Made by a program: the position numbers and the translations under genes. The notes under the pieces are model-generated. The model had not been told where the DNA came from, did not search any database, and saw only the letters and a list, made by a program, of their open reading frames with translations. DNA of 64,000 nt, taken from contig CM097885.1 of assembly GCA_044892525.1 (NCBI GenBank), positions 14,634,001 through 14,698,000 on the forward strand. Reading direction: 5' to 3'. Origin of the DNA: Schmidtea polychroa. Lineage: Eukaryota. Within the stretch, counting starts at the first letter, position 1. Every line of letters begins with the position of its first letter. Below, in pieces: positions 14,884 to 62,800 of this stretch.

Positions 14884-15324
14884 TTAAGCAATGAGTAATT
14901 TGTCGAATTTTACTGCAATTACTAAGTTCAATCGATGAATATGGTAATGCACATAAATAACTGATGGAAAGGGCTGACGAATTCTTGCTGATACTCCTGA
15001 TTTTTCTCCACTCATAACTCTGACACCATATAATCCAATTCCTGGTGATTTCCCCATTCGCAAATTCATAGATTCCGCTTCACTCATCAACCTTTGGCAG
15101 AAACGATTCGTCAACTTTGACTTCACGAAAATCGATAAATCTGATTCCAATAAACATTTGTTGAATTCCTGCAACATTAGATGACTTATCAGCGAGAATT
15201 GTAAAAAATTCAAATTTTTTGTAAAATTTTATCGATTGCAATCTCATTCATTCTCAATTTCATTTTGAACTGTGCTGCTTAAATACGTGGCATTTTTGGT
15301 AACATTCCATAATTCTCTTGATAT
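14884..15324 (-). pseudogene. hAT (ZMYM1-like) transposase fragment
   Basis: Motifs VMSGEKSGVSARI, IYVHYHIHRLNLVI and KNATYLSSTVQNEI; interrupted at 15325. Confidence 0.75.
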
Positions 15325-15959
15325 TGTTGGGCTAGAACTGATTTCTAGACCCCAACTTCTAATTGTGACTGGAATGCGTAGGTACATAACACGCAAAAAG
15401 TATAGTTAAATATCAAAAAATACACCAAATAAACAATATTAATTAAAAGAGAAAACAACAAAAATATAAACACAGAAATTAAATAAAATTATACAAATAC
15501 AAGAAGTTGTGCAAAAATCTAACTCAAAAATAACAAAAGAAACATAGAGTTACAAAAAACAGACTCGAATAACTTAAAAGACGGTAAAAACAGTAAAAAA
15601 TTCTAAAAAAAACCCAGAACATTCCATAAAAATGGCGATGACCATCATAAAAGCCATCCAGAGCAATAAAAGTTAAAAAAATAAATAAATTAGTATTAAA
15701 AATAAAAAATCTTAAAAAGAAATTCAGAAAACATCAGTTAAAATAAAAATTAAATTAAAAGTAAAATGGAATATTCTGGAACCGTTCCAAATCCATCATG
15801 GACGTAAATATAACAAGAAATAATTTTAAAATAAAAACAAAAATTATGGCACTAAAATTGCCATTAAAAATATCAAAATTACAAAATAGAAAATTCTGGA
15901 ATAAAAAGAATTCGAGTTTGTTTTAATGCATCAACACATACACGTGTACTTGCACACAC

Positions 15960-16052
15960 AAAAATAGGTATATATACCGACACGTTTCAGTTACAATTAA
16001 TCACTTTTATGCCAAATTTTTGTCACGAAGTTTCAGAAATCAATAGTGAGTA
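15960..16052 (+). promoter_or_regulatory. TATA box, Inr-like TCAGTT and first splice donor
   Basis: TATATATA at 15969-15976, TCAGTT at 15987-15992 and GTGAGT at ~16046. The same layout occurs in copy 2 (~61570-61665, -). Confidence 0.5.
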
Positions 16053-16097
16053 TTGATCTTTTATTTTATTTATGTATTACGACTAATCGACAAGGAT

Positions 16098-16585
16098 GTG
16101 AGCCCGTCAGATACAAAGGGGGGTATATCGATTACGTAATACGCACACTGTTGCTTACTGTCCATTCGCGTGGCTATCACGTAACATAAAGGTCAGTTGC
16201 TAACTGACCTCACGCGTGACCTTTACGTAATACACACATTGTTACTAACTGACCAGTCACGTGTCCATTACATCATCCACATATTATTACTAACTGACCA
16301 GTCGCGTACCCATTACGTCATATACAAACCTGTTGTTAACTGACCACTTATTGATGACTCAAGATACTGACCATGGTAACTGTGTCGTCATACTTAGTGG
16401 TCACTGGTTCCTAACTGTAACAACACACACACATCTAGGACATTGGTGGTCTATATAAGGATCCAGTACTATTGACTACTCTATGTGAGGATCCATTACT
16501 ATTCATACAACAACACACACACATCTAGGACACTGGTGGTCTATATAAGGATCCAGTACTATTGACTACTCTATGTGAAGATGTT
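16098..16585. repeat. LTR-like insert with ~45-bp taactgacc repeats and a ~90-bp tandem duplication
   Basis: Starts TGTGAG. Contains repeated taactgacc/ttacgt units and two copies of acaacacacacacatctagga...ctatataaggatccagtac. Absent from copy 2. Confidence 0.55.
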
Positions 16586-17457
16586 TAAAAATTATTTTAT
16601 TTTTTTTTCTCGTGTGATGTATGAATGATCAGCGGCGTACTGGAGTACCTGCGCCTCTGGTCAGTCCTGCATCCAACTAATTTAAAAAACCTTTTATGAT
16701 GACATGCGGACAGGCATTATCTATATTATATGTTTCTTTTTTGTTCGGGTCCTTCGGAGGTCGAACCACTTCATGGTCCTGCCATGGAGTTAAGTCGATG
16801 AAACCCTCCGTCTGACTCTTCTTATTTATTAGAGGTCAGCCGTAAAAGGTTGACTTACCACACAACATTAAGGTTTGTCCTAGCGGTCCCGGTGGGGCTG
16901 CGAAGCAAACACTTTTCCCGACTTTATGTACAAGACACAATCAAAATCACCACTCAAAATTCTTCACAATAGTGCTACACTAAGATCATAATTTGAGTAG
17001 AACTCAGACCCAAACTTATACAATTCTACAATTCAGTAATGTAGTCGGTTGAACAGCAATAATATTTCAGTCATGCTTATACGTTTGTAGAATTAGATTT
17101 TTATAATAACGAAAAATAGAATTTTATTGTAATCAAAGTAATTGAAATGATAAAGATATTCGGCATACGTATAGGTAGAACTTAATCTGAGTAGGTCTTT
17201 GAATTAATTATAGTTCTAATGATTCCAACTTAAATGTAGATATTATAAATCTAACTCCCAAAAGATTAAATTACAGATCTATATTGATCCAAGTTCCCAC
17301 TCTAAAATATTTGTATAAATGATAAATCATAAATGTATAATTACTTCGACCAAAAAATATGACCTGCAAGCAGTTATGAATAGAGGTTAACTATGAACAT
17401 GTAGGCTGTAGATGGTAATATACAAAGTTTAATTATAAAACATAAATAATACCTAAT

Positions 17458-17593
<136 letters not shown>

Positions 17594-19502
17594 TTCTAAG
17601 ATAGTCTATTAATCGTTGTAGATAAATTTTAAGCACAAAAATATAAATTATAAATAGTCAGGTATAAATTATAGACATGAAGATCCGAATTATAATTAGT
17701 TATGAAAAAATTTTAATTATAAAAATATAAATTATAAATAATTATAAAATTTTAGATATTAATCATATTGATCTTAAAAATATAAATTATTAATAGTTAT
17801 GGATAAATTTTAATTATAAAATATAGATTAGAAATAGTGGTGTATAAATTTTGACGGTAAAATATAACTTATAACTAGTTATATATAAACTATATATGTG
17901 TAGGAATTCTGAAACTATAACTTACAAATAGTTGTGGATAAATTTTTATCATCATAAACAATTAGGGAACAAAATTGGTTATAAAAAGGTAATTTATAAA
18001 AAGTTATATAAAGTTGACTATAAAAATATAAATTATAAAATATAAAATTATAAATTATAATTAGTCATATATAAAATGTTTATAGATATAAACTATAAAT
18101 AATTATAAGTTTTAACTATAAAGGTAGGGAGTATAAATAATTAGAGGCAAATTGGTATTATAAAATTCCACTTCTTGATATTCCAGCAAGACAGTGAACC
18201 AATACTCCACCAAATTCAAAATTTATTCCAATAAACGAAACCATTATTCCACTTCCCGAATTTTCCATTTTAAACAACAAAAACAAACAATTCTAGCATT
18301 TCTAAATCTATTACATCAAAATCAATTTAAAAATTAACAATTAAATATAAAAACCTTATCCACAATATCAATCCATTGCTCGCGTCTGTGTGCGCACACC
18401 AACAATATTCGGTCTAACCAGACCGCGCACACAGACGCGATAGACAAAAGCCGAATAAATGCCAGTCAGAGGCAATCCCCCTCTGACTGGTCAAAACAAT
18501 AGGTATAAATACAAATTATAAATAGTTATAATTAATATTTAACTATAAATATATAAAGTACAAATAGCTACAATAGTTTGTATCGAAGCCTACGACGTTA
18601 GAATTAGGAATATAAAATCTTGCTAAAATCAAAAATTATAAATTGAATGATATTATTATTATTATAATCGTTATCATTAGAGTTATTTTTGCCATTGTTA
18701 TTATTATTATTACTATTGGTATTATTATTATTATTATTTTTACTATTAATATTATTAATATTATTATCATTATTATTATTATTATCATTATTATTATTAT
18801 TATTACCATTATTATTATTATTATGGTTATTATTATTCTTACTACCATTATCGTTATCACCATTATTAATACTATTATTAATATTAATCTAACTATGATT
18901 ACTATCCTTATCCTGGTCTTCCCTGTTAATGTTTTTACAAATATTGGCGCCAATCCACCTCTAATAGGGTTAGGGAGGGCAGGCCCTAGGGGAAATGTTT
19001 CAAAAACCCATAAAAATTTGCATACAAATAGAAAATTATCCCCTTAAAAATTTAAATTTTTACAAAAATCGATGAGTTATGAAAAAACACAAAAAGCACA
19101 CACAACAATTGTCAATTACCTTGTTCCGGCTGGCTAGCCGGATCCACGCTCTGCTACCATGAATAAGTCCAGAATTCAATTTAAAAAACGTTCCAAATCT
19201 CGCAGTTTAAACAACAAAACCAATTCCAGAAATCACAACAAAATTCACAAATTCAATAATTTCTACAAAAATTCGATCGATAAAATTAACAATTATAAGA
19301 AATTACCTACTTACAAAAATCAATCGAATTTCCATTGCTCACGTCTGTGTGCGCACACCCATTTACCATAATTCGGCACACAGACGCGAGAATATTCAAC
19401 CAACAGCATAATCAACAGCCAGTCAGAGGTAATCGCCCTCTGACTGGTCGAAACAATTATTAATATTAATCTAGCTATGATTACTATCCTTATCCTGGTC
19501 AC

Positions 19503-19537
<35 letters not shown>

Positions 19538-20076
19538 GTTATATATAACTTAGTTATATATATTAGTTATGTATATTATTAGTTATTGTTATATATATTA
19601 TTAATTATATATATTATAGTTATATATATTAGTTATATATCATTATCACTATCGGTAATTATTACTTACCAAAATCAATATTCTAATCGAAATATCGATT
19701 TAAGATTTTCCCCCAAAGTTAAATTTAGTAGCAACCCCCTTGGATCCAATAGGAATGAGTAAAATCCTTAATAGTTATTTTTAGTAACACCCCCCCTGGG
19801 AAAATGTTACCATTATCCAAGTTACCTGGGGATATGGGTGGGAGTGCATGATCAAATATGTAAGCTAACCCTTTTAAATCTCGAATGAATATTGAACATG
19901 TAACTTTGTTTATTAGCAAATTAAATTACCATTGATAAAAGACAAAAGATTTTTTTATTATGATCAACAAATTACAGTACACAACCACTGCGAACCCAAA
20001 AATGTAAGTCCTGACTAGGAATCGCATGACGATCTCCAAAATTTGAACTTCTACATCTCCAGCCAGAAGGAATTGT

Positions 20077-20700
20077 GGATCAAGGTCAAAATCCCCCCTC
20101 CGGTTTGTGAACAAGTTCAAAATCCCCCCCCGTAAAAATATTAATAAAATATACAAAAAAAATAAAAAAAAGTTAAAAAAATATATATTCATAAAAATGA
20201 ACAAAATAAAATAAACATAACAATAAAATGAACATTAAAATTAAAATATACATAAAAAATACAATTAATATACAAATTATATACAATTAATAGCAAAATA
20301 AATCAACAACAAAATTAAAAAAACATTAAAAGAAAAAGCAAAACCAAAAACCTTTTAATTTTTGTCATGAATTTTCGCCAATAAGACATATTTGAGCATA
20401 TGAATCATCTTTGTATAAATCCAAAAAAATAAATTCTGTCAACATTTGTTTTCTTCCTTGTTCGGTTAACCCTTTAGCTGTCTTAATACATAGCTTAAGT
20501 TTATTGTTTGCACTCTCTATGTGCTGCGTGTGAACACCATTTTCAGGTGAAACAAAGTGATATTTATGACATACAGTCCTATGCTCATAATCATTAATGG
20601 TACCGAGAGAGTTGTATGTAGCAAATTCATCGGTGGCTATTATTGAACCTTGCCTAACAACTCTCGTCACTAATGCCAATCGCCTGATGTACCCGCATTT
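20077..20700 (-). mobile_element. Merlin / IS1595-type transposase C-terminal fragment with one end
   Basis: ORF 20365-20679 has GSIIATDEFATY, HRTVCHKYHFVSPENGVHTQHIES. Subterminal tcaaaatccccc repeats lie at ~20085-20130. Confidence 0.85.
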
Positions 20701-21043
20701 AGTGGTAATTATTCCAATTTTCTGAAAATATCTAAAAAATTTAGTATATAAAATTTTAAATTACCAACTAGTGGTAAACAAATTATAAAAATTAAAAATA
20801 GCAATTTAAAACAAAAATGACCTTTAGTAAATTATCGGACAGGGTATAGAACTTCTCGCGTAAAAGGGTACGCTAATAAATTTAAATCGAAAATTTCAAG
20901 TTATAATTAATTGCATTAATTATAGTTAATTGGAAAATTAAGTTACGACTTATTTTAAGTATGAAAATTTTGTATATTTTTATTATAGCTTCATTTGATA
21001 AGTCACACTGGTTGTACAAGGGTCTTGATCTTTACATTGCAAC

Positions 21044-21408
21044 ATGTCTCAATCCGATGATTTTAGCGAAGGAGAAGTCGATCGGCAAATGATTACCCGG
21101 CTCCGTACTCGGTATATTTGGTACCGCATCCACGATTGGAATCGTGGATTGGACCTCGATAACTTCGGACCAGTTATCCGAAGTGGCCCAGAACGTGATG
21201 CCCCGGATGGGTAAAAACGGAGCCTGCAAACAACCTATTACAGGAGGCCCGCGATCAAGCGGCCAGTGACGTAGAGGCCGCTCAAGTCCAACTCAAGAAA
21301 ATTGAGCTACAGATCAGGGCTAATTGAGAGGGAGTGCCCCTGGAGGAGCTAGAAGAGGCCGAGGCACCTCCACGAAAGAGAGGGAGGCCCCGCAAGTACC
21401 AAATGTGA
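21044..21408 (+). pseudogene. AT-hook small protein (disrupted), homolog of 58571-59038
   Basis: ITRLRTRYIWYRIHDW versus IARLRSRWIWYKIHNW; both end in an RKRGRPRK AT-hook. This copy has internal stops and frameshifts. Confidence 0.7.
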
Positions 21409-21673
21409 TTGCTAGCCGACATACAGTCATATGACAATTGACCTGATTTAATCAACTTTCGTTTAGTGTTTGTGTAATAATTTAAATAATTGAAATCGCC
21501 TGGTGTTCATTATTAAATAAAGTTTTTCTTTATAAATCAAGTCGTAAGTTTAGTGATTGCCCTAAGTCTTAGTGATAAAGTACTAATGTTAATCAATAAT
21601 CAATAATTTTATTACTTGTTCGTTTCAACTCTTTTTGGTATGAATGAAATTAATAAATCCCTTTATGTTTTAG

Positions 21674-22149
21674 TGTACAAATTATTGGAAAACCTGCGTA
21701 AAGATCGGGAACAGGCACAAAAACAAGCCGACGAACTTCGAGTCCGGGTTGATAAACTCAAAGGGAAGTGCCGGGAGTTCGAGGGCACCTGGTTTAGTCC
21801 CGCGGACATGAAAAAGAAGACAGCGCAGATCCTCCAGCTGCAGACACAAGCCGCACAAGTTCAGATGGAGATCCGCGCACTAAAATTACAGGTGCGCGCG
21901 CTCGAAACCAAGCGCAATGAACAATTCATACACGAAGCCGTGGTAAGACAAATCCGGCCGCTGACCGTCGAACTGGCAGCGATATACCCTCCAGCCGCTG
22001 AAAATAGACCCAAGCGAAAGCGGCTAGGACGTAACATTAGGGAGAAATTGAAGAAGGCCAGGTTGGCCGAATATGAACGTCAGGAGAAATTGTCAACATC
22101 GCAGGCGTCTGCGACGGGATTAACGTGCTCTGCCAACGAGCCAATTTAA
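21674..22149 (+). CDS. Basic coiled-coil protein exon of unknown function
   Basis: Starts after a ttttag acceptor. KLLENLRKDREQ..CREFEGTWFSPADMKKK..EIRALKLQVRALE aligns with the copy at 57579-57958. Confidence 0.65.
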
Positions 22150-22275
22150 ATTTTTCTTTGTTTGTTGATGTAAATTTTTCGTGGTTCATTAAATTAGTAT
22201 ACGAAGTAGTTTGTTATATGATTGCCTGAGGAATGAAAATTTGCGTGTGAGGGTTTGGGAAAACAATTTCGATAA

Positions 22276-22501
22276 GGGACCGAGGAAATCGGACACAAAC
22301 CTTCTAACGGTAGTCCGTGAACCCATAGAGTACTCGACAATTATAGTGCCTTGGTGCGCTCACTTTTTGCGAGTACTCAACCCCTTGGTACAGTACCAAC
22401 GTTGATTACTAAACGGGTACCAAGCGGAAAACAATGTTGTATTCTGGGTTACGCTGGTAACAGCACTAACTAATAAACATTCAACCACCAGTAACCCACC
22501 A
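22276..22501 (+). ncRNA. Putative structured RNA (four helical domains), copy 1
   Basis: Conserved with 57179-57411 (-), with compensatory substitutions, G-U pairs, a GNRA loop and a terminal 7-bp stem followed by ACCA. Confidence 0.65.
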
Positions 22502-22647
22502 ATATCAAGTCTTATTAAATTTCTAAAAATTTCCATCATTATTTTCATTTTGAACATTAAAAATACATCAACTATCTCGATATCCTCTTAACGGTAACGA
22601 CTGGCTAACTAGGTAATTTATTGTGTCAAAAATTCTTTTCAAAAGAA

Positions 22648-23368
22648 TTAGATTTTGATGTCGTTCGAAGTTTTCTGTTTTGTGAGTAGTCTTTCGATCG
22701 ATGCTTCAGGCTTTTTGATAATTACATCAAGCGTTTTAGCAACTTGTACTGACTTATTGTGATATGGTGTACTTTCAAAATGATTCAATATTACTTCCGG
22801 TAGCAAAGAAATGCAATATTTACAGAAAACTCCGTTTCCATTGATCGAGTATATAAGCCAGTCAAATTCAGCTAGCCAATGATAACTAAACTTGTACGAG
22901 ATCTTTCCTTCGTCTATTATTGGGAAGATGAATGATGGAGATGGATTCTTACATTTCGTCAATGCATTAACCTTCCCATTATCAATCAAATTCAAACGTG
23001 AATATAACGCTATGTCATCACTGGTTAGATGGTCATTGTTGAATTCTTTTTCTGTTATTTCCTTTTCGTAAATCTGTTGTTCAGTTTCGAGATCCATCAA
23101 ATTATTTAAATTGTTGTTTTCGTCATCACATTTTTGAAGTTATTATTGAATTTTTATTTATAAAACCAGTGCGAAAAATTAAGGTTTTTGATTGAGGAAG
23201 TTATTATTTCAAACATGTTCGAAAATTTAAAAAAAATTTGATTGTTACTCAATTAAAACAAATAAAATAAAATTTCAGGGATTAAATTTAAAAAAAATTA
23301 CGTTTAGATCGAGATCAGAAAATTTCCTATTTCTTTGTCTCCCTAATCCCCCCTTGCTACACGCCTGG
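22648..23368 (-). mobile_element. 5' portion of a hAT (ZMYM1-like) element
   Basis: Motif FSYHWLAEFDWLIYS..NGVFCKYC; hAT-type terminus CAGGCGTGTAGCAAGGGGG ending at ~23368. Confidence 0.75.
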
Positions 23369-41954: not shown

Positions 41955-42306
41955 TGTTGAGGATACCTAAATGACAAATTATAAACAAATAAATAAAATG
42001 ACTTGGGGGAAGATCTATGGGAACTCAGAAAAGAAAATGGAAGCAAAAAGAAATGTGAAATGATGAAGAGGAAGGAAACAAAAGAAATTAATCAAGAAAA
42101 TAAAAATGTTCCTGAAAATAATCACGAAAATATTGAAAATCGAGAAAATATTGAAAATGTTGAAAATTATGAAATTGATGTAGAAATTAAGTACTATGAA
42201 TATTTAAGTAAATAATAAAACTTCGAAAATAAAATAATAATGAGAACTTTGAAAATAATACTTTGAAAATAATACTTTGAAAATAATATTTTGAAAAAAA
42301 CTTGAA

Positions 42307-42348
<42 letters not shown>

Positions 42349-42583
42349 TATGAGGAAGTTGTATGATGAAGAAATTTTTAAATTGAAAATTTTAAAAAAT
42401 TAAAGTTTAGATTAATTTTTAAAAAAACAAAATAAGAAGATATTTTAATCAAAAATATCTTCGTAGAAAATTTGTTTAAATAAGGAAGTTTAAAGAAGAT
42501 ATAATTTGATTTGGATATTTACTGAAATACAATTTATGGAAACAAAAACTGATTTTAATGTTTTACAGGATGAACCTCCTAAT

Positions 42584-43543
42584 ATGGTGGCAGCGGTAAA
42601 CACGGACGCAATTACCGAAAGATTGCTACCAAAGGAAAAGTTCATTAAAAGATGCGAAATTTATTTCGACGCCAAGGGAATCACGCAGAAGAAAGACCAG
42701 GAAAGATTACCATCTTGCATGATTGATGAGGATCTCCTGGAAGTGTACGCCAAAACACTGAAAAAAAGCTGAAGGATTCCAGGCTAGGTTGCAATTGGCA
42801 TTCGATCGCGAAAGAGATGTTTTAAAGGATCTACAAAACTTGTTGAATTACAAGCGGAAGGGTGAAGAAATAGAAACGTATTTTAAAAAGGTGGAGGACC
42901 TTGTTGAAAGATTGTTTGAAAATAAAGAATTTACCAAAGAGAAATTAACAGCAAGGATGTTAATAGTCTGTGCGGAGAATAAAGAAGTTGAGAAAGAAGT
43001 GATACTGCGGAAAATAAAAAGCACAGAAGAAATAAATGAAACACTAACTCTGATGGACAAAGTAGACAAGCAAAGAGATCAGATAAACAGAATGAAAAGT
43101 TACGCCAGAGTGGTCTATCAGGAACCACAGGGAAGAGTACAATACAAGAAGAAAGAACAGAGAGAAGAAAGTATCCGAAGAGAAATGCCAGAATGCTGGT
43201 TATGCCACAAAATAGGACACACGAAAATTGATTGTCCAATAAAAGGTAAAATAGAATGCTGGACATGTCATAGAAGCGGACATATAAGTAGAAACTGTCC
43301 AGATAAAAAGGCTCCAAGATGTTTTGGGTGTGGGAAAGATCCGAGGAGTGTTATACAAAGATGAGGTACGGGAGAGCGACGGAGAGACAAAGATTCACGG
43401 GAAACAGATACAGTCGGATAAATGGTATCGAGGAAGAAGAAGAAAGGGAATCGTGTGTAGAGACAAATGAAGATAATTTTAGGAAGACGTACCCAAACAA
43501 CAGGACTCCACCAGTAGAGGAGTTGGTTGGAGCCATATTCTAA
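42584..43543 (+). pseudogene. gag with CCHC zinc knuckles (frameshifted)
   Basis: CWLCHKIGHTKIDC and CWTCHRSGHISRNC plus a partial third knuckle; frame breaks near 42765 and 43340. Confidence 0.85.
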
Positions 43544-43551
43544 CAGAAAAT

Positions 43552-45870
43552 TTGATGGGATATACTCAAGGGGCAGAAAATTGGGAGAATGTTGGAAGGG
43601 TAAGCGAGAAAGTATACAGGTTCCTAAAGAGAGAAATGTTTGAAGAGGAAGTGGAAAGAATTGGAACCATTGAAACGGAGCAGGTTGTTGAAATTTTGTA
43701 TAACAGAATGCAAGGAAGGCCTAGTATAACAGCAAGGATGAATGGGGAAAATTTCGACTGTTTATTAGACACTGGGGCAAGAATCAATGTAATGAGTGTG
43801 AACTGTTTTAACAAGCTACGAGGACAACAATTGACGAAAAGTGACGATAAATTACGATGCGCAAACGAGAGTACGATCGAGACAATAGGAAAAACGAAGG
43901 TGCAAGTAACCATTGGAAATGTTTCGAAGGAAGTTATATTCATTGTGGCGGAGAAAGTGACACCAGACGTGATTGGAGGAATCGAATTACAAGAAACATT
44001 TGGATTTAGACTGTTAAAAATTAAAGATATCGAGGTTAGTGAAAAAGACAAGAACTATATTTGTAACATTGAAGCAAAATTTGGCAGAAAAATAAACGAT
44101 GAACAACGATTGATACGCGTGTTGGAACAGTTAAAGATCAATGAAGATAGCAAATTAAAGGAAATTATAACAAACAGTGGAAACGTGTTTATGGCAGATA
44201 AATGGGATGTGGATCGCACACATTTGGTAAAACACAAGATAGTTACAAGAGGTGAGCCGATAAACATAAAACCATATCGCCAACCACTAAATTTGGAATC
44301 AAAGATTGAAAAAACAATACAAAATTTGTACGAAAATGGAATTATACGGAAATGTAACTCTCCATGGAATACACCGCTAATATGTGTATGGAAAAAAGAG
44401 AAAAAGGATATTAGACTATGCTTGGACTTTAGACAGCTGAACGCGGTAACAGAGAGGCATACCATTGGAGCAGTACTTTCACAAAGAGATAAAGATGGAA
44501 AGGAAAGAGTATTTGCGTATGGATCACACTCGATGACGAGCCACGAGAAAGGATATTGTAATACAAGAAAGGAACTATTGGCAGTATATTATTTTTGCAT
44601 TCATTTTAAGCACTATATCTACGGAAGAAGATTCACGCTCAGGACAGACCACAAGGCAATCACGTTTATGATGAGAACCAAGAAGCCGATTACTTCACAA
44701 TTCCAAACATGGATCAATTATTTGAGCAGTTTAGATATAAGAGTAGAATACAGAAAGGGTATTAATCACCAAAATGCAGACATGGTTTCGAGAACTAAAT
44801 GTGACACGTGTGTTCAATGTCAAATGGCCCACGAAGAAGCTAAGAAAGGAAAGATAAAAACAAGATTACTAGACTCGATCAGAGAAGGGGGAAGAAGCAA
44901 CATCCAACATGGAATTGTAGAAGAAGTACGAAAGAAAACGATGATACCTGAAAATGAGTTACAAGAAACAATAAAGGAAATACATAGACTATTGTGTCAT
45001 GCTGGAGTCGAGAAGATAGCCGATTATATGAAAGATAGATATGTTGGAAAACACCTGTGGAGTCAGATTCAGGAGATTGTTCGAAGTTGTGAGATTTGTC
45101 AAAAAACCAAGGCTTTAACAATAACAACGAAAGAACCAGTAAAAAGACAAGATTCGAAGGAAATGTTCGAAATTATATTCGTGGATATATGTGGACCGTT
45201 GGCAGAAACAAAAGGACGTAAGAAGTATATATTGGGCATAATAGATCAGTATAGTAAGTATCAAGTCTTGACAGCGATAACAAAACAAGACGAAGAAACA
45301 ATAAAGAAAGCGATTTTAGAAAAGTGGATTTTAAAATTTGGATGCCCAAAGGAGATAAGAGTTGATTGCGGAAAGGCGTTTGAATCAGGAATGATGAGAG
45401 AATTCACAAAGATGCTAGATATTAAATTATGTTTTTCGAGTCCATATCATCACCAAACAAACGGTCAGATAGAAAGACAATTCAGGACAATACGGGATTT
45501 GATTAATGCTACTTTACAGGATAGAAAGAAGACGGATTGGGCAGAGATATTACCAGAAGTCGAATTCACTTTAAATGCAACCAAACAAAAAACGACAGGG
45601 AAAAGCCTGGCAGAGATAGTTTTTGGAAAAAAGACTAGCAGGGAAAAATGGTACGGGTCCAAAGAAATATCGATAAAGGAAGAACTAGAAGAACAAACAA
45701 GGAGAAAATTCAATGTAGGAGAAGAAGTATTAGTAAAAGTAGAAACACGCCACAAAGGCCAGGACAGGTATGAAGGTCTGCACAAAGTGATAGAGAAAGT
45801 GCATGACAGACGATACATGAAGATGGAAAAAGGATCGAAAGAAATGTTGAAAAACTTAAAAATTTCTTAA
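43552..45870 (+). CDS. pol: aspartic protease, RT N-terminus, RNase H, integrase (RT core missing)
   Basis: LLDTGA; SPWNTP..LCLDFRQLN joined directly to TIGAVLSQ; ELLAV..TDH; H..H..C..C; VDICGP, DCG..F and NGQIER. Confidence 0.9.
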   Translation: MMGYTQGAENWENVGRVSEKVYRFLKREMFEEEVERIGTIETEQVVEILYNRMQGRPSITARMNGENFDCLLDTGARINVMSVNCFNKLRGQQLTKSDDKLRCANESTIETIGKTKVQVTIGNVSKEVIFIVAEKVTPDVIGGIELQETFGFRLLKIKDIEVSEKDKNYICNIEAKFGRKINDEQRLIRVLEQLKINEDSKLKEIITNSGNVFMADKWDVDRTHLVKHKIVTRGEPINIKPYRQPLNLESKIEKTIQNLYENGIIRKCNSPWNTPLICVWKKEKKDIRLCLDFRQLNAVTERHTIGAVLSQRDKDGKERVFAYGSHSMTSHEKGYCNTRKELLAVYYFCIHFKHYIYGRRFTLRTDHKAITFMMRTKKPITSQFQTWINYLSSLDIRVEYRKGINHQNADMVSRTKCDTCVQCQMAHEEAKKGKIKTRLLDSIREGGRSNIQHGIVEEVRKKTMIPENELQETIKEIHRLLCHAGVEKIADYMKDRYVGKHLWSQIQEIVRSCEICQKTKALTITTKEPVKRQDSKEMFEIIFVDICGPLAETKGRKKYILGIIDQYSKYQVLTAITKQDEETIKKAILEKWILKFGCPKEIRVDCGKAFESGMMREFTKMLDIKLCFSSPYHHQTNGQIERQFRTIRDLINATLQDRKKTDWAEILPEVEFTLNATKQKTTGKSLAEIVFGKKTSREKWYGSKEISIKEELEEQTRRKFNVGEEVLVKVETRHKGQDRYEGLHKVIEKVHDRRYMKMEKGSKEMLKNLKIS

Positions 45871-46110
45871 GAAGGGGGATATGAGGAAGTTTTATGATGA
45901 AGAAATTTTTAAATTGAAAATTTTAAAAAATTAAAGTTTAGATTAATTTTTAAAAAAACAAAATAAGAAGATATTTTAATTAAAAATATCTTCGTAGAAA
46001 ATTTGTTTAAATAAGGAAGTTTAAAGAAGATATAATTTGATTTGGATATTTACTGAAATACAATTTATGGAAACAAAAACTGATTTTAATGTTTTACAGG
46101 ATGAACCTCC

Positions 46111-57100: not shown

Positions 57101-57178
57101 TATATGTCTAAAAATATTATTATTCAATTAATATTCTTAAAAATAAGATTTAAAAAACATTTTTAATGACTTAATTAT

Positions 57179-57411
57179 TGGTGGGTTACAGGTACTGCAA
57201 AATCTCTACCTCCTCATACTGTTTCCAGCGTAACCCAGAATACAATTTATAGCTGACCACTTGATACCCGTTGAGCATTCAACGTTGGTACTGTATCAAG
57301 GGTTTGGGCACTAGCAAAAAGTGAGCATGCTTAACATACTATAATTGTTTAGTACCCACTGGGGTTCACGGACTGCCGATAGAAGGCCTATGTCCGATTT
57401 CTTTAGGTCCC
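57179..57411 (-). ncRNA. Putative structured RNA, copy 2
   Basis: Same helices as 22276-22501, with compensatory changes. Confidence 0.65.
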
Positions 57412-57578
57412 CGTTACGACAATTAATGTTATGGAAAAATCAAAATGCCCAGATATGGATGTACCAGTAACGATTTATTCGGAAAACACAATCAGAACTT
57501 ATAGTGTCTTGGTCGATTCTTTCGGAGTAGGCTCTGACACAGCAGAATGAAGTGTTAATTGGGCCTGGCTGGCTTGTC

Positions 57579-57958
57579 TTATTCTCGCCGTGCCGCTTTA
57601 CCCGGCCGGATCTTCTTCCTCGGGATTATCGGTGGTGCGTACTCCTTTGGTTTGTGGAGCAACTCACTCATGGGCCGGACCTTGGAGATGACTTCTCGAT
57701 CAAGATCCTGTTGGTGTACCTTGATCTCCAGCTCTTTCACCCTCAGGTGGAGGGCTCGCAACTCAACCTGATCCTGTACACTCTGGAGTTGCAGTTGAGC
57801 GATCAGCTTCATTCGTTTTTTCATTTCTGCTGGCGGGAACTAGGTACATTCGAAATTCCGGCAATGGGCCTTGATTCGTGCTAGCTTGGCCCGGTATTTC
57901 TCTGCCTGCTGTTGCTCCCGCTCTCTATCTGCCCGCATCTCTTCTAGGAGCTTTAACA
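57579..57958 (-). pseudogene. Coiled-coil protein exon, copy 2 (one in-frame TAG)
   Basis: ttttag acceptor at the homologous position; LKLLEEMRADRE..CRNFECT*FPPAEMKKR..ELRALHLRVKELE. Confidence 0.65.
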
Positions 57959-58570
57959 CTAAAACAAAGATAACATCAATATCTTTCCGCGCTATCGTCA
58001 ATGTATTCTTACCCTATAACAACCCCTATCGCTAAATGAGCCACCATCTTCACGTCGCAACCCCGCATTTATGTGCATCTAAACCCCGCTCTAACCCTAG
58101 GAGTCTCTTCTAAGTCTTACGGTGTTGGTAGGGATAGTCTCGAGATATCAGGAAATGTAGGAATACAAACACTTAGATGTATAGTGGACCAAACTACATG
58201 AGGAAAACTATAATTGGAGTATGAATAATAGCTGCCTAATAACACCATACATGCATAATTGATGGGTATGCTAGTTAACTTTAATTACAAAAATAAAGAA
58301 AATACCAACAATTAGATTGATATACCAGATATGCTCTACATTAAAAAGGACGTCTATCACGTTAGACAATAATAATACTGTACACCTTTAGTAATCGAAA
58401 TCGATACATGCAAATCAGAATGTTTATTAAATCAAGTCCTGGTCATTTATTATAATTTAAATGTGAATTTGCCAAGGCACGACGCACAGTGCTGACCTTT
58501 GGTCCGGCTATCGCTTCAACTGAGCTGGATGGATCTTCCGTGGACGACCGCGCTTTCGCGGCTGGTCCGG

Positions 58571-59038
58571 CTATCGCTTCAACTGAGCTGGATGGATCTT
58601 CCGTGGACGACCGCGCTTTCGCGGCTGGTCCGGCCCTCGCGGAAGACTTCTCTGGCATTCCAACCCACGGCGAAGGGCTGCGGTCCGCTTAGGATGGCAC
58701 TGGGCTCGGGCGTAACCGTCGATGTCCTCGAGCTCGCCGGCTAGGATGGCTACTTCGAGCCGGTGCAACCGGTCCACCGCCTCCTTCGCATCGTCGAATG
58801 CGTCGATCAAAGCCAACGAGGTGTAGTTAATATAGGGTTCCGCCTTCGGGATCACTGGAATTATGTTCTGGTAGGTCCAATTATGGATCTTGTACCAGAT
58901 CCATCTAGACCTTAGCCGGGCGATTTCTGCGTCCTCCCTCAATCGGACGGCTTCGTCTGCCTCCTCGTGGGTCATTCCGAGGCTCGAGTTGGTTGACGAG
59001 TGACCCCTCTGTACATTCCTTGGTTCAGTGTTGGACAT
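58571..59038 (-). CDS. AT-hook small protein, copy 2
   Basis: Open frame MSNTEPRN..RLRSRWIWYKIHNW..PRKRGRPRK; GC-rich compared with its flanks. Confidence 0.65.
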   Translation of the reverse strand: MSNTEPRNVQRGHSSTNSSLGMTHEEADEAVRLREDAEIARLRSRWIWYKIHNWTYQNIIPVIPKAEPYINYTSLALIDAFDDAKEAVDRLHRLEVAILAGELEDIDGYARAQCHPKRTAALRRGLECQRSLPRGPDQPRKRGRPRKIHPAQLKR

Positions 59039-59599
59039 GTCTGTAATGATGAGATAAAATATCAAAATATTTCCAAGTGCGCCTGGAACAATGTATTAGT
59101 CGTGATTTTTACCATTAATTCGGTTGGATGTTCAGGTTTTCCTTTATTATGTATTGCGATGTGTCAGTTAAAGTGAGTCGAATCTTCGTTAAAAATAATG
59201 CCAATGTGAGTAGTAATAATAATGATAATAATAATAAGGGGAATAATCTTAACAATAGACATAGGATGATGGTAATGATAATATTAATAATCATTATAAT
59301 ACTAATGGCTAAAGAAATGGTCGTATTCGTAGATTTATATTTTTATCAGATGACCGTATACACGGTTTGGGAATTCATCTATGAAAAATTATGAAGTTTT
59401 ATCCGTAAAATGAAATTTAATATAATCTAATTTGGTATACTCAAGAAATGATTAACGGTTACGTGATTTGAGGGGGGAGGAGGGGTCATTCATCGAAATA
59501 TAACCCAAGTAGAATGGGTAGTATGACAAGTTGATGATAATATAAACATAATGATGATAATGATAGTACTATTAAAAGAAAATATCTTTATCGTTACGA

Positions 59600-59880
59600 A
59601 GAACAGTTTTTGGATCTGAAATCGATTGATTGTTGAGAAAAAGGAAATCTTTCTCGACTTTAATGATACATTAAATTATTGTTCGTATTTTGGATCGATT
59701 TATTGGTAAGTGGAAATTTTCTTGATGTTTTGTACTACATTAAATTGTTGATCAATTTTGGATCGATTAATTGGTAAGAAAATTTTTCTTGATGTTTATA
59801 CTACATTAAATTGTTGTTCAATTTTGGATCGATTAATTTGTAAGAAAATTTTTCTTGATTCTAATAACATATTAACTTAT
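59600..59880. repeat. ~63-bp imperfect tandem repeat (about 4 units)
   Basis: Repeated ttttggatcgattaattggtaagaaaatttttcttgatg..tacattaaattgttg. Confidence 0.8.
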
Positions 59881-62800
59881 TGTTTAAGTAGGTGAAGAAA
59901 ATTAGCCAATCCTTCTGCGACAAGCATACTAAATTTTGAAGATTGTTCCCTCACGTATGGATTTTATTGATTATTGTTTGATGTAATTCTAATGGTAGTT
60001 TTCAATTTCAGTTTTCAATTTTAGTGATCAATTTGGTTTTACATTTCTGTCAAGTTCACTATTGGATCTAATTCAACGAAGATCGTCCGGGACTCATTCA
60101 ACAATCAGATCTCCTAAATGTACATTTAGAGCTGGAAATGATGGAGATTATATCTTTCAAGGTTCCATGGAAATATAATCCTTTAGGAGATTTTCTACCA
60201 TTTGCAATGTATGTTCAGGTGTATTTGACTATTTACTCTTTGCTATTCACTCTGGATGTTTGACTTCTCTTAAGTGATGCAAATTATCGAATTGGCAATA
60301 ACCTATGCAATCACATAATTTCATGCAGTTCGAAGTTGGCATTAATTTTAATTAATTTGTTTTTCCTTAATAACTTTTTCTATGATCACCCTATTACATT
60401 TTTATTATGCTTTCTAACCTCGTCTAACAATTTGGCATTCAACCATACCCGATATTGATTTTTAATTTTCATTAAATTTTAATTAATTTTGTACTTATAT
60501 TGATTTTACCAATTTTTGTTCTGCTTTCTGGTACCATGTGAAATTTATTTTGTTTTTGCTCTAACCCCAACAATATCATAATGGTATTTTGTAGTCAAGG
60601 TATATATATAGATTTGTAATTTACCTTATCAAAGTTGGGCAAGTATCCTCTTCGGATTACCCTTAAATAGACAAAAATCCAGCTATTTTCGGGAATAAAT
60701 TTCATCGTATAATTCATAAAAAAATATTTTTAATACAATTATGTTTGTTATCTAGGTAAATAATTTCTAATTGATTTTTGTTCACCATCCAACGGGATTA
60801 GTAAATTTTAACGACATAAAGATAAATGATTTTACGAAAAGCTTTTAGTTCACTACCGAACGGAAGTTGGTACTATTATAAGATATATATATATATATAA
60901 AGATAAATAATTTTACAAAATGATTTTCGGTCACCATCGAACGGGAATTAGATTACATTTGTAATAATCATGATTAGATTGCTAGAGTTTATGAATTAAG
61001 ATTGAGTATTAATTGTAGTAATTTGTCTAATTAGCCGACTACTTGAGAATCTTGGTAATAATTTGAGTCTGGGACATTTTCCATTTAGATTTTCCTACTG
61101 ATGTGTCTCCTATAAGATAGTTGAATGTTTATTTTAGGTATGTCATTTACCGAAAAGTCGAATTAATTAAAATTTTCCTATTTTCCCGACTCAACTGAAT
61201 ACGATAGGCCTTATTGTAATATGTTTCCGCGATAACTATCCCAAAATTTATTTCGTCCGCATAGTCCCTGTGACTATGTCAACTACCGGGATGGATTTAC
61301 CCGCCCTACTCATGGTTAGACACCATTTGTTCGTGGCGACCTCCGGTTAAAATTGAAATTTTAATGCATGTAGGGTCGTAGGCCCGAATTTATGCATGTA
61401 GACGATTAGTTAGAAACAAGGCTGATCAACGTCGTGACTACAACCCGTCCACGACGACGCCGGTCACTCTTGTTCCGTAATAGTAGAACTAAATGTGATA
61501 AAAAGACAACAAAAAAATTTTTTAATCAATATAATGAACCATAATAACAAATTAACAGTTATACAATCAAAGTCCTTACTTTCAGTATCGTTTGGATCTT
61601 CTGAAAAAATTTTTGGCATACAAAAAAGATTAAATTGTGACTAAAATGCGTCGGTATATATACCTATTTTTGTGTGTGCAAGTACACGTGTATGTATTGA
61701 TGCATTAAAACAAACTCGAATTCTTTTTATTCTAGAATTTTCTATTTTTGATATTTTTAATGGCGATTTTTTTGTCATAATTTTTATTTTTAAATTTCCA
61801 TTTTCTAAATATTTTTTGCTAATTTTACCTCCATGATGGATTTGGAACGGTTCCAGAACATTCCATATTACTTTTAATTTTTATTTTTATTGATATTTTC
61901 TGAATTTCTTTTTAAGAATTTTTTATTTTTATTACTAATTTATTTATTTTGATGGCTTTTATTGTTTTATGTGGCTTTCATGATGGTTATCGCCATTTTT
62001 ATGGAATGTTCTGGGTTTTTCTAGAATTTTTACTGTTTTTACTGTCTTTAAATTATTCGAGTTTGTTTTTTGTAACTCTATGTTTCTTTGCTATTTTTGA
62101 GTTAAATTTTTGCACAACTTGCATTTGTCTTATTTTATTTACTTTCTGGGTTTATATTTTTTGTTGTTTTCCTTCTTAATTAATACTGTTTACTTGGTGT
62201 ATTTTCTAATATTTACTGTGCTTTTTCCAGTCACAAGTTAGTTTTGGGTTTAGAAATCAGTTCTAGCCCAACATTATATATAAATTATTTAAATTAAAAT
62301 TTGATTCGCTAATATTTAAATCAAAATCGAAATAAATGTATAAATGATGTTTCGAACAAATAATAAATTAAAACTTGATATAATCATATTTTCATTATAA
62401 TAAATTTTGAAGTTGCCACTTGTAATAATTCTCCGCGGATCCGTTTTGAAAACGATATTCGCTATTAATTGAACTGATTTAGCAATGGATCGGAATTTTT
62501 TAGCTTCTAACAATATTTCTTGGTAACGCATTTTTCTGTAAATTGCGTTTTTGTATGTTAAAGAAATCTTTTTTTTGCTTTGTAAATTAATTAATTATAA
62601 ATTGATAGTTTTAATATAGATTATTTAATATAATGTTAGTAAATATAGATATTGATGAAATTTTTACTTAATTTCGTATCAAATGAATAAAATAAAAACA
62701 CACACACATATATATATATTTAATTAGGGAATTAAAATTGGAATTTTCGAGGAAAAACTTTTTCTCCCAATTTAGAAATCCCTTACTTATACGATGTATC

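Follow-up and report, generated by a model that had tools for sequence, protein, structure and literature searches.

The DNA analysed here, a window of 64,000 nt from the planarian Schmidtea polychroa (contig CM097885.1 of assembly GCA_044892525.1, positions 14,634,001 to 14,698,000), carries two copies of a structured block of ∼227 nt: copy A on the plus strand (22275–22501) and copy B on the minus strand (57179–57412). All coordinates are window positions unless a contig or locus is named. In this genome, of 781 Mb and about 30% G+C, the block makes up the final ∼227 nt of a long terminal repeat (LTR) of ∼5 kb and is not a free-standing RNA gene. We consider it likely that it corresponds to R-U5 (or U5), the terminal segment of the LTR (R, repeated region; U5, unique 5′ region), in a giant retroelement of Burro/GYPSM1 type, where it would form a structured leader beside the primer binding site for tRNA-Pro.

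Two solo LTRs in the window and their relatives in the genome

Both window copies of the block lie at the ends of solo LTRs with perfect 4-bp target-site duplications. The plus-strand LTR occupies 15325–22501, from the start TGTTGGGCTAGAAC (with an exact 28-nt match to the LTR 5′ end at 15325) to the end GTAACCCACCA, between copies of ATAT at 15321–15324 and 22502–22505. It measures about 7.2 kb owing to internal insertions and duplications, and BLASTN against a 5,015-bp copy of the LTR (locus L038) covers 15325–22501 in pieces. The minus-strand LTR (57179–62273; 5,095 bp) belongs to a diverged lineage; its 5′ end matches at 62246–62273 with one mismatch, and its duplication, ATAA on the minus strand, lies at 62274–62277 and 57175–57178. 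The duplications of both LTRs were read directly. At the other edge of the block, conservation begins sharply at AGGGACC, in copy A and likewise in about a dozen LTR lineages that have different sequences upstream of it.

The first-pass annotation of this window had reported a structured RNA element downstream of two unknown open reading frames (ORFs), and had observed that the RNA aligns between the two copies better than the ORFs do. The observation is borne out. When 16000–23000 is compared by BLASTN with the whole window, a single match joins the two loci (22276–22519 with 57411–57162; 75.8% identity over 252 nt, E 1e-39), and this sole DNA match is the block, whereas the ORFs upstream of it match between copies A and B only as protein, where identity is 45% across 58 aa and 31% across 126 aa. 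The block itself, compared between the two lineages, is about 74–76% identical, against 31–45% for the LTR ORFs as protein. The description has to be redrawn, in that both ORFs lie inside the same ∼5 kb LTR of which the block is the terminal part.

The unit is abundant. A first look across the genome gave 3,018 candidates for the block of copy A, among which all 40 that were scored were 93–100% identical, and 2,657 for that of copy B. Flanks diverge immediately past GTAACCCACCA in 60 of 60 aligned copies, which places the exact end of the repeat unit at 22501; upstream of the block, similarity continues for about 5 kb to the fixed start TGTTGGGCTAGAAC, which with 2,131 candidates is comparably abundant. 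The unit has fixed ends, TGTTGGG...CCCACCA, and TG...CA termini, in which the 5′ end TGTTGGGCTA and the reverse-complemented 3′ end TGGTGGGTTA match at 8 of 10 positions. At both LTR ends TGKTGGGYTA is followed by a local hairpin. The motif at the 5′ end fits the integrase signal TGTTRNR, as that signal is given in the relevant passage of a published paper (PMC3601003). Among seven complete units, five have perfect 4-bp duplications (ATAT, ATAA, GCAC, ATAG and AGAA), one has a duplication matching at 3/4 positions, and one has none. The last of these (L037) is a 3′ LTR with element-internal sequence upstream of it, and the first 100 LTR starts listed include 16 that are preceded by the sequence of its upstream flank.

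Secondary structure and compensatory change

On the plus strand, copy A of the block is predicted to fold into four domains. Domain 1 (22290–22317) consists of helix P1 (22290–22294 with 22313–22317) and helix P1b (22299–22301 with 22309–22311), which closes a 7-nt loop. Domain 2 (22328–22378) has P2 (22328–22340 with 22367–22378) and P2b (22345–22349 with 22356–22360), and domain 3 (22381–22427) has P3 (22381–22391 with 22417–22427) and an apical P3b (22400–22405 with 22410–22415). Next comes TTGTAT (22437–22442), nearly invariant and single-stranded within the LTR. In domain 4 (22446–22497), P4 (GGGTTAC/GTAACCC, 22446–22452 with 22491–22497) is continued by P4a (GCTG/CAGC, 22453–22456 with 22461–22464), whose tetraloop at 22457–22460 is of the GNRA class; copy B has in addition a hairpin, P4b, formed by 57211–57207 with 57194–57190. 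The LTR terminus itself, GTAACCCACCA (22491–22501, plus strand), is the 3′ strand of P4 followed by ACCA, and is presumably the end recognized by integrase.

Each helix listed by the first-pass annotation was recovered. CGGAC/GTCCG, CTTGGTAC/GTACCAAG, GGGTTAC/GTAACCC and GCTG-GTAA-CAGC are all present in copy A, GAGTACTC lies at 22328–22335 and 22371–22378, and the minus-strand copy carries the variants that had been quoted for it. Pairing had also been said to survive the differences between the two copies, and on the final structure it does: of 56 comparable pairs, 42 are identical, seven are changed on both sides and kept, two are changed on one side and kept, and five are broken in one copy. 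Two of these five belong to the hairpin that lineage A lacks, and at least two others (67:104 and 139:146, in alignment numbering) are private mutations of a single copy.

Folding energy by itself is weak evidence, being mildly unusual for the plus strands of the two copies (z −2.67, with 3 of 200 shuffles folding as well, and z −1.86, with 8 of 200) and less so for the reverse strand of copy A (z −1.40, 16 of 200); the case beyond chance comes from the covariation seen once more sequences are aligned. With few independent events to be had from lineages A and B by themselves, further lineages were sought. A search pattern for the opening of the block, made so as to exclude A and B, matched 589 times against 6 in the control, and represents about a dozen further lineages. 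From 60 sampled copies of these lineages 44 were kept; those dropped either had no recognisable 3′ end (L086, L087, L088, L100, L116) or had large deletions or a doubtful end (L075, L076, L079, L084, L097, L101, L106, L107, L108, L109, L114). To these were added 27 of 60 A/B copies, the number being held down to limit their weight. The resulting alignment A3 has 71 rows, 65 of them distinct, and was scored on a structure of 57 pairs, giving 3,683 cells.

Pairing is found in 93.9% of the 3,683 cells, compared with 29.7–39.8% when partners are slid by 1–3 columns. Double changes occur at 21 of 57 pairs (14.1 ± 1.7 in shuffles) and in 197 cells (56.6 ± 11.9 in shuffles), and the covariation score is 0.185 against 0.103; none of 500 shuffles reached any of four measures, these three among them. 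The number of further pair types is a weaker signal (64 against 58.4, reached by 2 of 500 shuffles). Since the shuffle control ignores relatedness among the rows, more weight is placed on the slid controls, which are exceeded by a wide margin. The double changes are spread over P1b (2 of 2, a two-pair segment), P2 (6 of 12), P2b (2 of 5), P3 (5 of 10), P3b (3 of 6) and P4b (3 of 5), with none in P1. In P1b, for example, 26:41 is GC in 28 rows, AU in 27 and GU in 6, and 27:40 is CG in 49 and UA in 15, and several pairs show at least three pair types, such as 66:105 (CG 40, AU 11, GU 5, UG 4, GC 3). Counting against the structure, P4b is missing from lineage A and from the GGCC lineage and is 77.8% paired; it is otherwise found in most lineages. 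With compensatory changes far above both the shuffled and the slid controls, the selected structure that had been proposed from the two window copies is upheld, and the fold of the block is genuinely under selection.

Primer binding site and element interior

What follows the LTR end in full elements was searched for with a pattern of GTAACCCACCA, 5–11 nt and TGGGGGCTCAGCC, which has 382 matches in the genome and none in the control. In nearly all listed rows of these 382 the spacer is TACAAATT, so that 8 nt separate the LTR end from an 18-nt site. The same arrangement was met in 4 of 60 sampled copies, which read block, TACAAATT-like spacer, TGGGGGCTCAGCCGGGAT and then at least 1.5 kb of shared sequence. 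Searching with the complementary T-arm and acceptor sequence led to locus L090, where ARAGORN calls a tRNA-Pro(tgg) to whose last 15 nt, extended by CCA, TGGGGGCTCAGCCGGGAT is exactly complementary. On this complementarity the 18-nt site is a primer binding site for tRNA-Pro(UGG), and because an exact tRNA-Pro-complementary site follows its end, the 5-kb unit is an LTR. The single-stranded TTGTAT of the block is predicted, in minimum-free-energy folds of 3 of 5 loci with LTR and primer site, to pair with an ATACAA that bridges LTR end and spacer three bases ahead of the primer site, and in this way to extend P4. Duplex folds made for further contacts between tRNA-Pro and the block gave only long-looped, inconsistent pairings.

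The tRNA-Pro(UGG) gene, found at locus L090, is itself amplified, standing in tandem arrays with a 475-bp period at C1:130901009–130949497 and from C1:133142101 onward; a 23-nt pattern from its T arm and acceptor has 2,305 matches when one mismatch is allowed, against 0 in the control. A different relation to tRNA was considered and rejected, namely that the 7-bp P4 with its ACCA mimics a tRNA acceptor: ARAGORN finds nothing in the window, and in full elements P4 would not stand at an RNA 3′ end, since the RNA would run on through the spacer to the primer site.

The sequence that follows the primer site encodes a RING finger in one ORF, a Gag with CCHC knuckles (49.6 bits), a MATH domain in a 753-codon frame, and a fusion glycoprotein (Monjiviricetes_fusion) with a membrane anchor; upstream of a 3′ LTR are RVT_1 (46.8 bits), BIR and RING. 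Host-like modules are conspicuous in this interior, with MATH/TRAF at 103.9 bits, BIR at 60.4 bits and two RING fingers. The interior modules are located at L069 4426–6687, L069 7083–8000 together with L131, L037 1246–2190 and L011 2458–2940. By hand count, an open frame of 4,791 aa, which would join the domains in one polyprotein, holds 53 of 140 scored Gag matches, and frames of at least 4,672 aa hold 74. In three of three coordinate sets an LTR start is followed on the same strand by a primer junction and then by the next LTR start, with LTRs of 4.8–5.5 kb, interiors of 25.1–25.6 kb and a total of about 36 kb, a two-LTR arrangement read from paired coordinates. The 4,351 first-look candidates fit thousands of copies. 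Distant relatives in a protein collection (P0001–P0003) combine glycoprotein, protease (PR), reverse transcriptase (RT), RNase H (RH) and integrase (IN) in one protein.

These properties recall Burro/GYPSM1 of Schmidtea mediterranea, which the passages describing it in its source (PMC6431247) present as an element of thousands of copies, with an interior of up to 25 kb and a total above 30 kb, coding for a 4,873-aa polyprotein with three CCHC knuckles, MATH, RING, BIR and an in-frame mononegavirus-like envelope. The likeness extends to copy number, the ∼25 kb interior and total above 30 kb, the single huge polyprotein frame (4,791 aa here), and a three-CCHC Gag, MATH, RING, BIR and mononegavirus-like fusion glycoprotein before pol. 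It is a match by described features. Those passages do not speak of primer site, U5 or leader structure, and the LTR here is about 5 kb long with two ORFs. The element is probably, then, a giant Ty3/gypsy-like, envelope-carrying endogenous retroelement of the published Burro/GYPSM1 type, a type that is already known.

Two other classes of mobile element were set aside. A LINE/SINE 3′ tail (LINE and SINE, long and short interspersed elements) is ruled out by the fixed 5′ ends, constant 4-bp duplications, TG...CA termini and primer site; a non-autonomous DNA transposon with short inverted repeats and subterminal hairpins, Ginger-like or of the single-strand transposase type, would have here an imperfect inverted repeat of only ∼10 nt, where tens of bases and a transposase would be expected, and the primer site and retroelement genes are present instead.

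Two further genome searches led to other families. A genome search with RVT_1 returned, in its best 150 matches, a very abundant family with mostly identical scores and mostly 1,061-aa frames, which looks like a young non-LTR family, and so did not place RT in the element. A search with P0001 returned in its top rows not the 4,791-aa family but a sister, the second retroelement family of this genome (e.g. C2:144148302–144153995), with the fusion glycoprotein and PR-RT-RH-IN in one frame of ∼3,437 aa and a pol 47–48% identical to the metagenome protein P0001. Four sequencing runs compared with the element consist of contigs and gave no transcript starts, ends or strand; those contigs that start at the LTR/interior junction are branch points of the assembly graph. 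In the leader 3′ of the primer site, at about position 2102 of L011, one contig, from a run taken tentatively for RNA, breaks off in a stretch of A residues; either an internal poly(A) site or an A-rich variant of the genome could account for this.

The LTRs have contents of their own. Two ORFs lie in the ∼5 kb LTR, at 20990–22149 (plus strand) and 57579–59095 (minus strand) in the window and also in loci L002–L030. ORF1, of about 125 aa, has an acidic start and ends in PRKRGRPRK; ORF2, of about 165 aa, is coiled-coil-like and basic. In copy A, ORF2 is a 180-codon stop-to-stop frame (21607–22149, plus strand) of the same coiled-coil-like, basic character and without a Pfam family; copy B has ORF1 with the AT-hook-like PRKRGRPRK at its end (58571–59095, minus strand) and a remnant of ORF2 (57579–57839, minus strand). 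Both are conserved as protein between lineages A and B, at the identities given above, though DNA alignment is lost. Compared with Pfam and a protein atlas, the LTR ORFs gave nothing over cut-off or over chance; the AT_hook match of ORF1 scored 13.9 bits, under the cut-off of 17.4.

Within LTR copy A, a fragment of an IS1595/ISXO2-like DDE transposase (PF12762, 33.1 bits) at 20466–20676 on the minus strand sits in ∼470 nt that the reference LTR copy lacks, and is probably a nested insertion of a Merlin-type transposon. The same LTR has local tandem duplications at 16132–16582 and 18604–19047 (74-nt units at 97% identity), and a long low-complexity tract of AAT/ATT type, similar to tracts in other LTR copies, that reads as poly-Asn or poly-Ile in several frames. 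Just past its end, a 163-codon frame on the minus strand (22648–23139) with a Cys/His stretch has no Pfam match and is unrelated to the LTR. Elsewhere, 42001–46000 has a GC skew of +0.27 to +0.35 and an AT skew of +0.30, unlike the remaining window.

Place and role of the block in the element

U5 is by definition what an LTR ends with before the primer site, and the 3′ terminus of the RNA does not have it. The 3′ portion of the block, at the least, would therefore occur only at the 5′ end of genomic RNA, and from the abrupt start of the block at AGGGACC we infer the start of the transcribed leader. In the full element the 5′ LTR would end with the block, followed by the 8 nt and the 18-nt tRNA-Pro(UGG) primer site, and in genomic RNA the block would be a structured 5′ leader just upstream of that site, folding into the domains P1/P1b, P2/P2b, P3/P3b and P4 with the GNRA-capped P4a and, in most lineages, P4b. 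Active lineages may keep the helices by compensatory change because the fold is needed in cis. Its likeliest role would be to place and activate the tRNA primer, so that minus-strand DNA synthesis can begin; it may also serve strand transfer, packaging or dimerisation. The 11 nt at its very end, which do not vary and comprise the 3′ strand of P4 and ACCA, may act also in DNA as the integrase recognition end. A replication signal was among the functions first suggested for the block, and is a probable one; a tRNA-Pro primer binding site adjoins the block in 382 copies.

A number of observations weigh against this account. Part of the block could be U3, the unique 3′ region of the LTR. P4 and P4a are 96–97% paired with zero double changes, so that their conservation could be a DNA-level (integrase) constraint. 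One pair, 65:106 in alignment numbering, is a C.A mismatch in 18 of 65 rows, common to several lineages, and 116:162 is unpaired in 21 rows. The helix predicted between TTGTAT and the spacer has no compensatory support, both strands being nearly invariant, and for the variant spacers among the listed primer junctions (one TGCAA, two TACTA) two variant-pattern searches gave no matching change upstream at those places. RT was seen beside this LTR in one rearranged copy only, and integrase only in the relatives P0001–P0003 and in the sister family. A polypurine tract before the 3′ LTR was not found, a 9-purine pattern giving only three matches, and the sequence recurring before 3′ LTRs in the 16 of the first 100 listed LTR starts, ATGGGCCCCCGAGTGTTTTA, is fixed and not purine-rich. 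Strand asymmetry is small (173 G.U against 113 A.C cells), and one codon phase of the block is slightly more variable, with a mean entropy of 0.613 against 0.49.

Of the other explanations, the best placed, though we think it unlikely, is that the fold acts at the 3′ end of a transcript, in R of the 3′ LTR or in the 3′ untranslated region of an LTR-ORF mRNA, and serves polyadenylation, termination or stability. The block lies directly downstream of ORF2 in every LTR, solo LTRs (very roughly 2,500, a scaled estimate) could be separate transcription units, and the GU-rich TTGTATTCTGGG, nearly invariant in the block alignment, could be a downstream poly(A) element; with R at both RNA ends, moreover, the two roles could coexist. 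Telling against it are the U5 position of the LTR stretch before the primer site, which keeps that stretch from the 3′ end of the RNA, the presence of AATAAA in the block of some lineage A copies only, and a structure that reaches the very end of the LTR.

It is improbable that what is selected is a fold of single-stranded replication DNA, the minus-strand strong-stop or its plus-strand counterpart, and not of RNA. The weakness of the strand asymmetry would suit such a fold, as would the C.A at 65:106, which on the minus strand is G.T. Opposed to this, the P4a tetraloop is GAAA in 36 rows, GTAA in 17 and GCAA in 2, which gives a plus-strand GNRA loop to 55 of the 65 rows; in domain 2, the minus strand would have C.A in place of the U.G pair 79:92 that 57 of 65 rows conserve; and 93.9% of cells pair on the plus strand compared with 92.3% on the minus strand. 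Plus-strand RNA is favoured by these data, not overwhelmingly, and the preference for the ORF strand expressed in the first-pass annotation is to that extent probable, on the strength of the GNRA loop and the conserved U.G, while the asymmetry between strands stays small.

We give still less credence to signals at the DNA level only, such as an integrase end, promoter or enhancer, with the helices as by-products of palindromic protein-binding sites. The invariance of P4/P4a without covariation would be expected of such signals, and TGKTGGGYTA with its hairpin at both LTR ends would fit them too. Protein-binding sites would, however, conserve sequence and not complementarity, and the 21 double-change pairs, well over the shuffled and slid controls, argue against them for domains 1–3.

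More improbable again is that a repeat happens to harbour an independent non-coding RNA gene, ribozyme or guide scaffold. The multi-domain fold with its GNRA loop, and the lack of a known family for it, would suit such a gene; but the copies end exactly at the LTR terminus (60 of 60 in the A/B set, 55 of 60 in the second set), there is no nuclease gene alongside, and Rfam gives 0 matches in the window at gathering thresholds and, at E up to 10, only IsrR and SCARNA7, both at 8–11 bits against cut-offs of 52–65 (the best scores of that search being 11.3 and 8.4 bits), with no ribozyme. The ribozyme and guide-scaffold options raised for the block consequently find no support, lying as it does at the end of a ∼5 kb LTR beside a tRNA-Pro primer binding site. 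That the block had been assigned to no known family is correct as regards Rfam; in kind it is familiar, a leader of an LTR retroelement of a published giant type.

A coding exon can practically be dismissed: frames of 70–110 codons run through the block in some copies and one codon phase is slightly more variable, as noted, but a frame stays open through the block in only 6 of the 65 distinct rows, and gap runs whose length is no multiple of three outnumber the others by 647 to 92, which makes coding unlikely; mean entropy is lower in paired columns (0.403) than in unpaired ones (0.664), and no frame is conserved across lineages. None of the outcomes that were to refute the first-pass reading has come about: covariation is significant, substitution is not codon-like and Rfam holds no match, and the reading of the block as a structured R-U5 leader is the one we carry forward.

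Structured leaders beside primer sites have precedents. In the passages on R-U5 leader structures of two papers (PMC3601003, PMC1865047), those named include the U5-IR stem and U5-leader stem of avian retroviruses and the primer activation signal of HIV-1. The block resembles retroviral R-U5 leaders in being conserved, structured U5 RNA directly upstream of an 18-nt tRNA primer site, and its predicted helix joining U5 to sequence just outside the LTR (3 of 5 minimum-free-energy folds; variants uncompensated) would, if formed, recall their U5-leader and U5-IR stems. It differs from them in having no sequence or model similarity and in its four domains over 227 nt, as well as in that no extra tRNA contact was found and that the border-spanning helix is without covariation. 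The murine leukaemia virus group also primes with tRNA-Pro.

The leaders of Ty1 and Ty3, in the portions of the literature that treat their primer sites (PMC3592414, PMC4974528), likewise have RNA structure that acts in cis close to the primer site and governs reverse transcription and packaging; theirs lies largely in the gag region or involves a two-part primer site, whereas here the structure is wholly within the LTR. Among errantiviruses, with Gag-Env-Pol order or chuvirus-like glycoproteins, the element type is similar, with a PF24664 glycoprotein beside a gypsy pol (sections of PMC13524379 and PMC7642597). In its sections on classification the errantivirus survey uses tRNA primer sites to classify elements and does not treat leader structure, and it excludes LTR pairs more than 14 kb apart, so that elements of the size described here fall outside it (PMC13524379). 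LINE/SINE pairs of the stringent type, with their 3′ untranslated region structures, offer another conserved, folded terminal segment of a high-copy retroelement, from which the block differs in its fixed 5′ ends, constant 4-bp duplication, TG...CA termini and primer site. We found no paper in the literature on the leader or primer site of Burro/GYPSM1-type elements, parts of which the genome paper or Repbase may annotate.

One further connection is speculative, and we hold it doubtful: the leader and the amplified host tRNA-Pro genes (about 2,300 copies) may be linked, the genes either feeding the demand for primer or supplying host 3′ tRNA fragments that target the primer site. If so, an element family that fills a large share of the genome would be priming on exactly the tRNA-Pro(UGG) that is amplified, and the four-domain leader would be the element's side of a contest over an invariant primer site and its structured U5 platform.

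What had appeared as an unknown structured RNA is now placed as a probable leader beside the primer site of giant retroelements, and does not constitute a new RNA class. Its covariation-backed secondary structure could seed an RNA family model, and its primer tRNA can be named. For planarian genomics the block provides a compact marker of LTR ends and lineages, being common to about a dozen lineages with differing upstream LTR sequence, and it may serve as a starting point for asking how a genomic RNA of roughly 30 kb would be primed and packaged.

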